This document shows, piece after piece, positions 3,474 to 62,651 of a stretch of 64,000 bases of DNA; the first letter of the stretch is position 1; each line of letters starts with the position of its first letter. A model generated the notes under the pieces. That model was not told the DNA's origin and ran no database searches. It was given only the letters and a program-made list of their open reading frames with translations. Source of the stretch: Malacoraja senta. Its lineage: Eukaryota. The stretch is taken from contig CM075989.1 in the NCBI GenBank assembly GCA_038087875.1, positions 10,046,001-10,110,000 on the forward strand, given 5' to 3'. The position numbers and the translations under genes are program-made.

Positions 3474-3680
3474 AAGACAACACAAAATGCTGGAGTAACT
3501 CACAGGGGCAGGCAGCATCTCTGAATAACATGGAGAGGTGACTTTTGCGCTGGGACCCTTCTTCAGCCCCGACCCAAAATGTCACCTATCCATGTTTTCC
3601 AGATATGCTACCTGACTCACTGAGTTACTCCAGTACTTTGTGACTTATTTTATAAACCAGCATCTGCAGTTCCTTGTTAC
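3474..3680. mobile_element. Penelope pLTR-derived hairpin element
   Basis: Inverted pair of the tgctggagtaactcag...gcagcatctct repeat with a degenerate hammerhead motif. Confidence 0.75.
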
Positions 3681-4331
3681 CTCCCCTGTTTGGGAGGAGT
3701 CTGGTATCACTCCCAAAGTTAGCTTTGGATTATAGCAAGAAATTCTTGTTTCTTATTAAAAACCTGATAATGTTATGGATATAAACCCGCCAACAGCAGG
3801 AAGTGTAAGTAGCCACCAACTCCTTCCTTTCACAAGGACCCTACACTGCAAGCACGTTCAGAGGGGAAATCTCTGCTGCCCACCTCCCGCTGTTTCACCC
3901 CCATCGGGCATCAGAATAATCCCGCTGTTCAAACACAATAGCTATTGGTTACTTCTTACAGTCACAGGAAGCACTCCCCGAGGCGGCAGGAAATGACAAA
4001 AACAGAACTTCAAAGCAAGCGAGCCGCCCGTTAGTTAGGCCATCCCGAACACAGGAAGTGCTTCTCCAGTTCACAGAACTGATGCAAGAGTCATCAAAAC
4101 AAACAGAACACATCATCGCATCCGGAGATAAATTATAGCATTCGGCTAAATTAAACATGTTGGTCAAAACTCTACTCTATTTGGGAGTTGGAATGTTTGG
4201 ATCTATATTTATAGCGGCATAGTTTCCTGATAATTTTATCACACAACTCCTCACTCTCCCCTCCCAAAGTGTTTATAAGCAATCTATTGAAGCATTCACA
4301 GAAAAAAAAGGAAAGAAATCCTTGAATTTCA

Positions 4332-4570
4332 AGACAAGAGACATTTATTTGTCACATGTACCAATTGGTACAGTGAAATGTGTGGTCACCATCAAGCCAT
4401 ACGAATAAAAAAGAGCACAGAATGCGATAGTCTTTAACATAGACATCCCCACACAGCGGAATCAACGTTTTCGACTGTGAGGGAGGGCACCAAACTTCAG
4501 TCATCCTCCTCTGTTATTGTCTGTTGTTCACCCTTGGTTGGGGGGCTCCCGAACCCCTTGCTGTCGCCCC
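4332..4570 (-). mobile_element. Non-autonomous retroelement 3' end (Rex1-type tail)
   Basis: Reverse complement of the tttcactgtacc-aatt-ggtacatgtgacaaataaa tail; body is similar to 12755-12900 and 40480-40664. Confidence 0.6.
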
Positions 4571-4994
4571 TCTGACTACTTTCAGTGCCCCTCTGACTAA
4601 TTTGACCAACAGTGCCCCAGAGGATATCTTTTCACGGTTACAGATTCCAAGCTCAGCATTCCTACTGGGTAATCAAACTATCCCCCCCGGTCAAAATTAA
4701 TCTGCATCGTTCATTCAACAGTAGATTGCACTTTCATCTGAATCAGAAGCTTGCAGTTTCTAATCCTTTTCCACAGAGTCTAAGATCCAGTACCAACAGA
4801 GTGCTGCACTATCAGAGAGAGCACCTTTCTGGCAAGATATTCAACCAGAGGCTCTCTCAATTAGGCGCACGAGATGTCAACACAATACTCTGAGGAGTTC
4901 CCAGGCAAATAAATCACCAATAACCTGCCCTGGCCCAACCATATTGATGCTATGGCCCAGAAAGCACACCATTGCTGCTTCCTTTCAGCACTAA

Positions 4995-5232
4995 AGGGCC
5001 TGTCCCACTTTCACGACCTAATTCACGACCTCTGCCGAGTTTGCTCTTGACTTATACTCGCAGCATGGTCGTCACGAGGTCGTAGGAGGTCGTAGGTTGG
5101 TCATAGCAGGCCGCGATGCTAGTCGTAGGTACTCGAGGCATCAAGTAGGTCGGGGCGTTTTTTCTAGCCTGATAAAAAATGTCCACGAGTAAAAAAGGTC
5201 GTGAATTAGGTCGTGAAAGTGGGACAGGCCCT
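4995..5232. mobile_element. PIF/Harbinger MITE
   Basis: Perfect ~36 bp TIRs (agggcctgtcccactttcacgacctaattcacgacc) and a TAA target duplication on both sides. Confidence 0.9.
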
Positions 5233-5521
5233 TAAGGAAATTCGACACGTCTCCAACAACTCTTGCCAACGTCTACAGATGCACCGTTGAAAGCATCCTA
5301 GAGATGCATCACAGCTTGGTACATCAATTGCTCTGCCCAAGACCCCAAGAAATCGCAGAGTGTTGTGCAGTCCATCGTGTAATCCAGCCTCCCCCCTCAT
5401 TGATCTCATCTGCGCTTCATGCTGCCGAGGGAAAGCAGCCAGCATAATCAAAGGACCCTTTATACTCCGGTCGTTCCCTTTTCTCCCTTCTCCAATTGGG
5501 CAGAAGATACAAACACACAAA

Positions 5522-5672
5522 GTGTGTAGGAAGGAACTGCAGATGCTGGTTAAAATCGAAGATAGACACAAAATGCTGGAGTAACACAGCGGGACAGGCA
5601 GCATCTCTGGAGAGAAGGAACGGGTGACGTTTCGGGTCAAGACAACTTAACGCCACCCATTCCTTCTCTCCA
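5522..5672. mobile_element. Penelope pLTR-derived element
   Basis: Minus-strand pLTR end plus a short inverted arm. Confidence 0.75.
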
Positions 5673-59729: not shown

Positions 59730-59935
59730 CTGGGGATGGTTATGCACTTGGTGTTAATACTCTGTGTAGTTATTGCCTTCTCCAACTCGTCCAACTGGCC
59801 AGTCTTTTTCAGCTTTTTCACCAAACTTTTCACCGCTTTCTCGCACCATTTCTCCTCCTGCCCGTTTTGTTCACCCTTCTTCCAGCCCAGGAGGCGCTTG
59901 ACAATCGGGGGCGTGAAAGGCAAGATCGAAGACAT
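59730..59935 (-). CDS. SMAD3: SMAD3 first coding exon (N-terminal part of the MH1 domain)
   Basis: Translates [68 protein letters not shown](R). It lacks the SMAD2 Gly/Ser-rich insert and has the SMAD3-type I11, GQLDE and TIPR. It is 206 nt and ends at CAG|GTAACG (phase 2). Confidence 0.97.
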
Positions 59936-60640
59936 TTTCAAGCACCGATCTCCTTCAATCCCGTCTTCTCGGAGTCGTAGGGGGGGGGGGGCAGAGAGGA
60001 GGGAAGAGAAGCAGAGCAGCGCCTCGGGCAGAGCGAGGGGGTGGGAACTGGGAGCGGGGAGGAGGAGGAGGGAGGTAGGGAGGGAGGGGGGGGGGGGAAG
60101 ACCCCAAACTTCTCTCCGGTAAAGTTTCACCAAAACTTTTCCTCGTCAACTTCACAGCGGACCCAGCCGGCCTCCGCACACCCCTCCTGCCGAGCTGAAA
60201 CCTCAGTAACCCTCCGCCCTCTCAATAGAGTGCCGCAGCCTTCTCTGAAATACACGTGAAGGAGAGACTCGGATTGCCCTCTCTTTAGCTTCGGGCTCTC
60301 AGTTGGCAGCACCAAAAATAGATTTTTTTTTTGTTGGAACCAAAGTGTTGTTTTTGTTTCTTTCCCTTGTTCTGGTGACGGGATTAATCCGCCCTCGCAC
60401 AGCAGGGGGGTTGCAGCGGCGCGGCGGCTACCTTGGGTCAAATTGGAGTCTGTGTCTAATGCAAATTACTTTACAACAGGGACTTGCACAGGAGAGTAAG
60501 TGTGGAGAGTGTTGTGGGTGTCACTGCCCCCCAGACACAACCCTCCCTCCCTCGCCAGCGCCAATCAGAGAGACGCCTTTGAAAGAGAAATGCCTGGCTC
60601 AACTGATCCAAAATTACAGTCTCACTCAATCCCAGCACAT
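59936..60640 (-). promoter_or_regulatory. SMAD3 5' UTR and proximal promoter
   Basis: TE-free and GC/CpG-rich. Contains GC boxes, CACGTG at 60253, GGATTAATCC at 60381, ATGCAAAT at 60459, CCAAT at 60561 and CCTTTGAA at 60576. The TSS cannot be determined from sequence. Confidence 0.7.
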
Positions 60641-60947
60641 CAGCCGAAGCAAGCGAGAGAGGAACGTCCTTACCTCTCAACTTCCAGCCTCACCTACCAG
60701 GCAGGCTACCAACCCACAATCATCTGGGATCAATAACTGCAGCTCATTAAAACTAGGAAGTTTACTGCTGTATTTTTGCGTTTTGGACCCTTTGCCTCAC
60801 CTCTTCCATTTATGTCACTTACCTTCCCCTGTCCCACAGACCTGCCACCACCCCCCCCCCCCTTCCTTCATCCCCTCCCCTCCATTTTACAACTTGTCTA
60901 CCACTGATTTTTTGTTGTTGTGTTTTGTTGAAAAGTCATTGATTTAA

Positions 60948-61205
60948 AGTTTAGAGTTACAGCATGGAAACAAGCCCTTCGGCCCACTGAGTCCACGCCG
61001 ACCATCGATCACCCTTCATAGACACAAAATGCTGGAGTAACTCAGCGGGACAGGCAGCTTCTCTGGAGAGAAGGAATGGGTGACGTTTCGGGTCGAGACC
61101 CTTCTTCAGATCAGCCGTTCACACTCGTTCTATGTTGTCCCACTTTCTCATCCACTCCCTACACATTAGGGGGAATTGACAAAGGCCAATTAGCCTACAA
61201 ACCAA
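60948..61205 (-). mobile_element. V-SINE 3' half with a pLTR insertion (61018-61110; hammerhead core 61082-61109)
   Basis: SINE tail split by a pLTR segment. Confidence 0.8.
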
Positions 61206-61229
61206 AACATTAATTTTGCATTAAACAAG

Positions 61230-62052
61230 CTGGAGACCGCAGATCCGCTCTCACTCCCCATCCCCCTACTCGTAACAAGGACAGAATCCCTCTTGTCCTC
61301 ACCTTCCACCCCATACGTCGCATACAACATATAATCCTCCGGCATTTTCGCCACCTCCAACTGGATCCCACCACTGGCCACATCTTCCCATCTCCTCCCC
61401 TTACTGCTTTCCGCAGAGACCGTTCCCACCCAAACCACCCCCTCCCCTGGTACTTTCCCTTGCAACCGCGGGAAATGCTACACTTGTCGCTTTACCTCCC
61501 CCCTCAACTCCATCCAAGGACCTAAGCAGTCTTTCCAGGTGAGGCGTAGTTCACCTGCACCTCCTCCAACATCTACTGCATCCGCTGTTCCAGGTGTCAA
61601 CTTCTCTACATCGGTGAGACCAAGAGCAGGCTTGGCGATCGCTTCGCCCAACACCTCCGCTCTGTTCGCAATAACCAACCTGATCTCCCGGTGGCTCAGC
61701 ACTTCAACTCCCCTTCCCATTCCAAATCCGACCTTTCTGTCCTGGGCCTCTGCCATTATCAGAGTAAGGCCCAGCGCAAATTGGAGGAAAAGCACCTCAT
61801 ATTTCGCTTGGGTAGTTTACATCCCAGCGGTATGAGCATTGACTTCTCCAATTTCAGGTAGCCCTTGCTTTCTCCCTCCTTCCTCTCCCTTTCCCAGCTC
61901 TCCCACAAGTCTACTGTCTCCGCCTCTTCCTTTATTTTTCCTGCACCTCCCGACATCAGTCTGAAGAAGGGCCTCAACCCAAAACATCGCCTATTCATTC
62001 TGTCCATAGATGCTGCCTCACCCGCTGAGTTTCTCCAGCATTTTTGTCTACC
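61230..62052 (+). mobile_element. Penelope-like element (GIY-YIG remnant plus pLTR)
   Basis: IPLVLTFHP...CNRGKCYTC...IYCIRCSRCQLLYIGETKSRLGDRFAQHLRSV. Confidence 0.9.
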
Positions 62053-62651
62053 ATCAATTTTGCATCTCCCTCTACTTGTCCCGCCTAACCTGGTGAACAT
62101 TTTCACCATCTTCCACCTTTTACCCGATGATCCAGTTCACTTTATTAATCTTCTGTGTTGATGTCATTTTCCGGATCCATGTGTTGGGAAAAAAGCTACT
62201 GCGTTGGATTTGTTTAATGGTGTTTTCACACCTGGGGAACAGATTGTGGGTTTGAGCCCAAGTTGGGACACAGTTAAGATCACAGGATAACCAACTGGGT
62301 GAATTTACCACCTTTCACGTGGGCCAAGGCTCACCTGAAGAAAGGAGACAAGAGAAACTGCAGATGCTGCTATCTTGAGCAAATCACAAGTGTTGGAGGA
62401 ACTCAATGGGTCAGGCAGCATCTGTGGAGGGAATGGACAAAGAATGGGAGACTGATGGGGGGGAGAGAAAGCTGGAAAAGAGAGGTGGAAGTAGGACAAA
62501 GGTGGATACATGGGAGGGGTGACAGAGGGTGGAGTAAATGAAGAAAAGTGCAGGCTCAGTCACTGAGTGTATTCAAGGAAAGACTAATTTTGGAGAGTTA
62601 GGGATCTGGCTTTAGTACAGGAAACTTGCTGAGGTAAAATATCAGACATGA

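Follow-up and report, generated by a model that had tools for sequence, protein, structure and literature searches.

The 64,000-nucleotide (nt) stretch of Malacoraja senta DNA analysed here (the window; GenBank assembly GCA_038087875.1, contig CM075989.1, positions 10,046,001 to 10,110,000) contains the first coding exon of SMAD3 and many copies of a short repeat with a hammerhead ribozyme motif, which we trace to a Penelope-like element (PLE) family. The exon is on the minus strand, and 67 of its 69 residues match PDB SMAD3; exon 2 is outside the window, ~7.7 kb beyond its start (neighbouring locus L051). The original prediction had distributed the repeats across SMAD3 intron 1. The exon is real, but three copies above 60 kb, including the one at 61082 on the minus strand, lie upstream of the first coding exon and so outside the intron.

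A repeat profile built from the copies named in that prediction gave 47 matches in the window at E ≤ 0.01, and 0–1 in each of ten shuffled controls. Five of these matches come from units of a 49-bp satellite. By score, the window holds 39 copies at 20 bits or more, 33 at 40 or more and 26 at 60 or more, with a unit length of ~100–133 nt; the proposed repeat of ~130 nt is therefore real, although ~25 copies was slightly too low a count (33–39). A strict descriptor of the minimal hammerhead (CUGANGA, an optional extra base, a helix II closed by G-C, GAAA, a palindrome and H) found exactly five motifs, at 19040 and 38882 on the plus strand and at 24364–24391, 27724–27751 and 61082–61109 on the minus strand, and none in any of 100 shuffled sequences. 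These are precisely the five copies previously singled out as best, and all five of the stem II loop variants listed with them occur in window copies. The description of stem and core as largely kept was overstated: all core bases are retained in 13 of 35 aligned window copies, and the core together with a 4-bp stem II and ACGT in only six. The features are listed below, with the repeat given as a pseudo-long terminal repeat (pLTR), the identity argued for further on.

3463..3680: decayed head-to-head pLTR pair.
5525..6352: 5′-truncated copy (5525–5643, minus strand) and a head-to-head pair (6177–6352) without the 5′ catalytic box.
11925..12199: head-to-head pair with a 14-bp duplication at its flanks.
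14704..15206, plus strand: frameshifted linker and GIY-YIG remnant of the element, 63–67%.
15403..15701, plus strand: three tandem decayed pLTR pieces following the 14704..15206 remnant; motifs broken.
18770..18931, plus strand: remnant of the GIY-YIG C-terminus, 83% to amino acids (aa) 1184–1237 of the full-length open reading frame (ORF).
19037..19166, plus strand, antisense to SMAD3: pLTR with full tail and an intact minimal hammerhead (19040–19067), preceded by 3′ untranslated region (UTR) and endonuclease C-terminus.
24292..24394, minus strand, sense to SMAD3: solo pLTR with an intact motif (24364–24391) and a 13-bp target-site duplication (TSD).
27659..27754, minus strand: duplicate of the 24292 copy within a 935-bp local duplication; intact motif at 27724–27751.
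28290..28506: head-to-head pLTR pair.
30335..30537: head-to-head pair with broken motifs, inside another repeat.
32042..32207: full pLTR with tail (minus strand), its 5′ edge joined to a short inverted piece.
32821..32947, minus strand: older-subfamily pLTR with tail and 3′UTR; decayed motif.
38879..38978, plus strand, antisense to SMAD3: tailless pLTR with an intact motif (38882–38909), preceded by 3′UTR and ORF end (38665–38766).
43982..44066, minus strand: solo pLTR with an intact core, a G10.1-U11.1 wobble and a 10-bp TSD-like word.
47751..50469, plus strand: older-subfamily copies at 47751, 49383 and 50344; decayed motifs.
54523..55543, minus strand: solo pLTRs at 54523–54625 and 55412–55543; CpG decay has removed the ACGT palindrome.
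59730..59935, minus strand: SMAD3 coding exon 1, with intron 1 running from 59729 down past the window start.
61017..61110, minus strand: solo pLTR with an intact motif (61082–61109), upstream of SMAD3 coding exon 1.
61238..61855, plus strand: linker and GIY-YIG remnant (63%), then 3′UTR.
61958..62067, plus strand: pLTR following the 61238..61855 remnant, with G12>A and a stem II mismatch that break the motif.
62350..62439, minus strand: older 5′-truncated copy without hammerhead, upstream of exon 1.

The minus-strand motifs at 24364 and 27724 share a 935-bp local direct duplication (23616–24550 and 26995–27908, 94%), and thus both stem from one insertion; the duplication flanks an L1/Tx1-like reverse transcriptase (RT) remnant (frames at 24570–26596). 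The pair at 30335–30537 recurs at three sampled places (L108:2725–2935, L108:5176–5384 and L144:3481–3689; 89–93% identical), with outer flanks common to both L108 copies, indicating that it was amplified as cargo of another repeat. The 49-bp tandem satellite, at 49626–49919, has a unit that includes a 25-nt pLTR piece.

The claim that the family has heavily colonised this locus did not hold. At 40 bits or more, copy density is 5.16 per 10 kb in the window and 5.13 on its own chromosome, as measured in 23 10-kb stretches of that contig (p = 1.0); on this comparison, a SMAD3-specific enrichment is rejected. Density in 77 stretches elsewhere is 3.59 per 10 kb, and the excess of the window over these is weak (p = 0.054 at 40 bits; p = 0.002 at 80 bits, a comparison biased toward the window by a profile trained on window copies). 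Extrapolation gives roughly 0.5–0.75 million repeat pieces in the 1.94 Gb genome. Copies within SMAD3 intron 1 favour neither orientation (18 sense, 15 antisense; p = 0.73). We conclude that SMAD3 is a bystander, of no special standing for the repeat family, and merely tolerates the insertions.

Intact elements bounded by the repeat are present in the genome. Locus L231 consists of a 131-nt repeat, a 35-nt spacer, a 1238-aa open frame, a 113-nt UTR and a second repeat; the same arrangement is seen in L232, L233 and L238, where the upstream partner amounts to 26 to ~680 nt. The first 101 nt of both repeats are identical within L231 and within L238, which points to recent activity. The protein has DKG, YIDD (aa 885), a C-x4-C-xx-C linker (aa 1105) and YIGET (aa 1155) motifs. 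Over all sampled loci, 42 repeat copies lie 94–281 nt behind the end of the endonuclease, and four GIY-YIG endonuclease remnants precede copies within the window. The family thus displays what is expected of endonuclease-bearing PLEs: a single ORF with RT and C-terminal GIY-YIG, direct pLTRs arising from partial tandems, an optional 30–40-nt tail, inverted truncated copies and variable TSDs. The earlier assignment to a Penelope-like pLTR is confirmed by these intact pLTR-ORF-pLTR elements.

In published work, cited here and below from the portions covered, Neptune-type elements share this single-frame layout of RT and C-terminal GIY-YIG, as well as DKG, a CX2-5CxxC linker, partial tandems, pLTRs, a 30–40-nt tail and inverted 5′-truncated copies (PMC8557442). 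That linker defines Neptune and Nematis (PMC8557442), and only Neptune and Poseidon have been reported in vertebrates (bioRxiv 10.64898/2026.07.22.740005). We conclude that the repeat is, to judge from its sequence, the pLTR plus tail of a Neptune-type PLE. Two points weigh against so exact an assignment: the Pfam RVT_1 and GIY-YIG matches of the 1238-aa frame are weak, below the curated cut-offs, and the placement comes from the linker, which Nematis has too, rather than from a tree. Unlike the Neptune-type elements described (PMC8557442), the present frame is long (~1240 aa) with a Pro/Ser/Thr-rich spacer, and stubs exceed ORF ends ~14 to 1 (491 repeat copies vs 34 ORF ends). In the L231 frame (L231:2994–6746), this long and internally repeated spacer lies ahead of DKG, and the first ATG overlaps a donor-like AG/GTATG; several element copies keep open frames of more than 1000 aa.

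In all six subfamily consensuses of the repeat, and in the five window copies, the order of CUGANGA, GAAA and NUH is that of type I, with a G10.1-C11.1 pair; a palindromic loopless helix III (ACGT) and an extra A between positions 9 and 10.1 are present. The earlier description of a minimal type-I hammerhead with a palindromic ACGT therefore stands. The extra A between A9 and G10.1 had also been seen correctly; it is no special tolerance, however, since published metazoan PLE motifs normally have it (PMC4209133). Like those motifs, the present ones occur in both flanking repeats, lack a loop 3, are palindromic at 15.2-16.2, combine the extra base with G10.1-C11.1 and a short helix I, and are mostly dispersed single motifs from truncated elements, with some opposite-strand pairs (PMC4209133). 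Helix II is 4 bp here and 7–8 bp in the Schistosoma motif (PMC4209133). About 58,000 intact motifs are present genome-wide, compared with 4,000 in coelacanth and 9,000 in Xenopus (PMC4209133). The commonest 28-mer has 18,728 exact copies; by outer helix II pair, 34,488 intact motifs have U-A, 23,323 U-G and 108 C-G. The family is also numerous in contigs from three other organisms, where the motif varies frequently only in loop 2 and at positions 17 and 1.1. No other hammerhead family was found by the strict descriptor in 1.16 Mb sampled, and an Rfam scan of the window gave no hammerhead family match at E ≤ 5, as expected for a helix III without a loop. Cartilaginous fish are not named in the main-text portions covered of PMC4209133, the supplement of which may list such motifs.

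Helix I has 2 bp, plus two more after an internal loop, compared with a criterion of 4–5 bp, and its pairing probability is below 0.01 in five real copies, in keeping with the earlier caution that a stem I of 2–3 bp makes activity uncertain. Forcing the hammerhead fold on the six consensuses costs 1.6–9 kcal/mol, and the ACGU duplex contributes −1.7 to −3.1 kcal/mol. Lunse et al. reportedly (by title) deal with dimer cleavage of PLE variants, which may match the present motif. A helix I of 2 bp is published for D. virilis, and the activity of such minimal hammerheads in vitro is low even as dimers (PMC4209133). The predicted folds make it likely that the motif is idle in inserted stubs; in the parent element, it probably cuts weakly and depends on dimers and protein to do so. 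Pairing of the tail with the ribozyme was considered as a conserved switch and rejected, being strong in just two of six consensuses, with fold z-scores of −1.5 to +0.6.

Clustering of 268 copies yielded the six subfamilies, with 4–18% divergence. Between their consensuses, none of 11 core positions differs, compared with 16 of 61 downstream positions (p = 0.049). The five changes that do fall in the motif are all loop, wobble or NUH-permissive changes: loop 2 has two of them, helix II and helix I each have one U-A to U-G, and the fifth turns GUC into GUU. This contrast would fit selection on parent elements, if thinly: it is marginal, and no excess of two-sided change was found in helix II, where the U-A to U-G change, in a subfamily of ~23,000, is one-sided. 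A compensatory C-G subfamily was rejected, since its 108 copies, equal to 0.46% of the number in the U-G subfamily, do not exceed what drift would give; single changes that break the stem number 1,117, so that the 108 'compensated' copies are no excess. Inserted copies decay neutrally, with G12 and the CpG of the ACGT palindrome diverging by 27–30%, at the CpG rate. Copies diverge less in the core (0.069 vs 0.105, non-CpG), but we did not accept this as selection, because the core is rich in A, and A/T sites show lower divergence in general. The proposed comparison of core and flank among genomic copies is unsuitable because dead copies decay neutrally, and it is the subfamily comparison that is informative.

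Another reading is that the motif is kept mainly as a DNA promoter (an initiator plus a downstream element) or a protein-binding site, and no longer cleaves even in the parent. TCAGT and the ACGT word near +28 resemble the initiator and the RGACGTGY downstream element of D. virilis Penelope (PMC3846280, PMC2377424). In addition, the youngest subfamily (~23,000 motifs, ~4% divergence) has GUU and wobble pairs, is predicted to be weaker, and folds with its core hidden in the tail; and anole mutants transpose without cleavage in vitro (PMC11167929). Nonetheless, six subfamilies and contigs of related species keep the two catalytic boxes as well as stem II, the palindrome and NUH, and the anole motif does cleave with protein (PMC11167929). 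We therefore consider a purely DNA-level role unlikely.

Exapted intronic hammerheads of the amniote HH9/HH10 type are single-copy, conserved across species and have stable helices I and III, whereas the motif here is high-copy, neutrally decaying and unstable in its fold. Co-option of sense copies as intronic ribozymes that regulate SMAD3 pre-mRNA is the least probable reading that we considered, indeed a highly improbable one. Intron 1 has two intact sense motifs, separated by 3.36 kb, that could in principle pair through ACGU, but they are the product of one recent duplication, the copy density is that of the background with no strand bias, the duplex is weak, and stem I is unformed.

Copy ends were compiled for 491 copies from a total of 1.16 Mb, made up of the window, its neighbours and random stretches; those at the 5′ side stand out. 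The 3′ ends cluster at ~+96–104 and +129–132, ~35 nt apart, and TSDs of 9–18 bp accompany 22 of 107 solo copies, compared with one of 321 swapped controls. A fixed spacing from a repeated CCAGCAT word to both 3′ ends was discarded, the distances being different (~12 vs ~20 nt). For the 5′ edge, 258 shorter or weaker copies were excluded, leaving 233 good copies that reach the front edge of the ribozyme: 45 run on into known 3′UTR and ~9 more into UTRs outside the reference set, 68 are head-to-head joins, and 107 pass into unrelated DNA. Hence, about three quarters of the copies that reach the ribozyme 5′ edge stop there, at an initiator-like TCAGT. When the match is extended upstream of CUGA by three parental bases, and then by six, the youngest subfamily falls from 19,101 to 13,305 to 9,376 copies genome-wide, a drop far beyond what 4% divergence explains. 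Among 30 youngest-subfamily loci viewed, the UTR is present in 13; in most of the rest the junction falls between −3 and +4, and additional bases or short duplications are frequent there.

There is no corresponding peak of 5′ ends at the cut site, where only four of 491 copies begin (+32). The ends thus fall at the front edge of the ribozyme rather than at its cut site, as would fit run-off cDNA from uncut RNA, and we argue from these junctions that the usual template is uncut. Self-cleavage as the driver of the spread, implied when the family was called self-cleaving-RNA-linked, is without support. Cleavage in trans at the upstream GUC was also considered as the cause of the 5′ edge and rejected; it predicts ends at +5, where eight of 278 good copies end, compared with 67 at +2.

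Short, abundant, hammerhead-bearing units could also be retrozyme-like mini-elements that spread via self-cleaved circular RNA. Non-LTR retrozymes are likewise short, non-coding type-I hammerhead repeats of high copy number, argued to derive from pLTRs (PMC7229834; bioRxiv 10.64898/2026.07.22.740005), and a few tandems and +32 junctions are present here. However, those elements form head-to-tail arrays with canonical ribozymes and circular RNA, whereas stubs of an autonomous element, continuous with it in sequence, lie dispersed or head to head here; the one tandem in the window has broken motifs, the unit ends at the tail sites and the ribozyme front edge rather than at the cut, and helix I is 2 bp instead of the canonical 6. 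We regard this origin as very unlikely.

The copies are best described as 5′-truncated Neptune-type pLTR insertions, with or without the ~35-nt tail, carrying a known minimal hammerhead, made mostly from uncut template and likely idle as stubs, an account that we hold to be probable as a whole. Its observed elements are the parent (pLTR, ORF with RT, CX4CxxC linker and GIY-YIG, 3′UTR, pLTR), two clusters of 3′ ends, TSDs, head-to-head pairs and a sharp 5′ boundary. The element protein would nick DNA and prime cDNA internally at one of two tail sites (+97–103 or +131), and cDNA on the leading pLTR would run off the RNA 5′ end to give 100–133-nt stubs. Copies with 3′UTR and ORF would come from the trailing pLTR or from read-through RNA, and two cDNAs primed on opposite strands would join head to head. 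After insertion, the copies decay neutrally, tolerated by SMAD3. We give roughly an even chance to the RNA 5′ end lying at the initiator-like TCA(+1)GT; an initiator and internal promoter have been described for other PLEs (PMC3846280, PMC2377424). In the anole Poseidon element PAc, two internal RT start sites define the tail and genomic 3′ ends fall at them, as here; uncut RNA is the substrate, and the ribozyme needs protein (PMC11167929). The ORF of PAc starts inside the ribozyme, whereas the first ATG of the present element is ~165 nt downstream, and the portions covered of PMC11167929 mention no 5′ boundary at the front edge of the PAc ribozyme.

Several observations weigh against this account. 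The 5′ junctions are spread from about −3 to +4, instead of falling at one base, and many lie downstream of the proposed +1. In addition, 132 young copies start at +32/+33 with three unlike bases before them, perhaps ~1% of the subfamily after correction; microhomology explains several of 30 that were viewed, adjacent positions were not counted alike, and some templates may have been cut. Finally, the boundary also coincides with a pyrimidine tract plus CAG, splice-acceptor-like as in D. virilis, and with a TCAG-T-CTGA palindrome. The same element could thus have a 5′ edge set by a 3′ splice site, by snap-back or template switching at the palindrome, or by an endonuclease cut in element DNA. 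The junction scatter of ~7 nt would suit any such origin. A pyrimidine-rich run, mostly ending in CAG, precedes the motif in 42 of 42 endonuclease-linked copies, and the D. virilis intron ends at helix I (PMC4209133), but 165 non-inverted copies have no shared upstream exon. Palindromes occur at inverted junctions, and self-priming has been proposed for rotifer PLEs (PMC3846280 or PMC2377424). On the other hand, the additional bases and mini-duplications seen where copies join resemble jumps made at the end of a template, and a structural block would stop RT at the 3′ side of the ribozyme, where ends are rare. We see an edge of this other kind as possible, though clearly not the favoured case; the usual template is uncut under it as well, as in the anole work.

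Other features of the window belong to different families. A different long interspersed nuclear element (LINE) has a 411-aa open RT frame at 44688–45923 on the minus strand, with RVT_1 and ALKBH8_N matches. Near-perfect hairpins resembling miniature inverted-repeat transposable elements lie at 48468–48544 and 56720–56824; their Rfam miRNA matches are far under gathering scores. Other abundant families of short interspersed nuclear elements (SINEs) or LINE ends, presumably HE1/HER1, form two groups (20401–20494, 44178–44271, 51695–51788 and 53607–53700; 2730–2974, 7179–7363 and 18235–18471), and the pLTR copy at 61017 sits inside one of these families. A whole MH2 domain in a single exon, at G000:C13:10323389–10323886, ~280 kb from SMAD3, is probably that of an inhibitory SMAD, presumably SMAD6, which is linked to SMAD3.

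The repeats first noticed in this window are thus real and their kind was recognised correctly, whereas locus-specificity is absent. The ribozyme motif and the element class were already known (PMC4209133). In the literature searched, which included few subscription papers, no account of this family from cartilaginous fish turned up, nor one of a 5′ boundary at the ribozyme; such motifs may be listed in the supplement of PMC4209133 or in that of the bioRxiv preprint. The boundary at the ribozyme front edge is a useful addition to the known system, and the value of the family lies in its scale (~58,000 intact motifs), its very young intact elements and its sharply repeated copy ends, which make a clean fossil record. 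The function of PLE hammerheads is described as unclear (PMC8557442), and the present family would allow a direct test between two roles for the ribozyme, processing of the template and restraint of the element. As a tentative proposal, which we rate well below an even chance, the hundreds of thousands of stubs may record the RNA 5′ end: transcription would start at the first base of the hammerhead, placing the ribozyme at the cap with no more than three bases for helix I, RT would copy uncut RNA from tail to cap, and, whenever element RNA is plentiful, cleavage at +31 in dimers would remove the cap and keep the element in check. If this is true, cleavage would restrain the element rather than mature its template.

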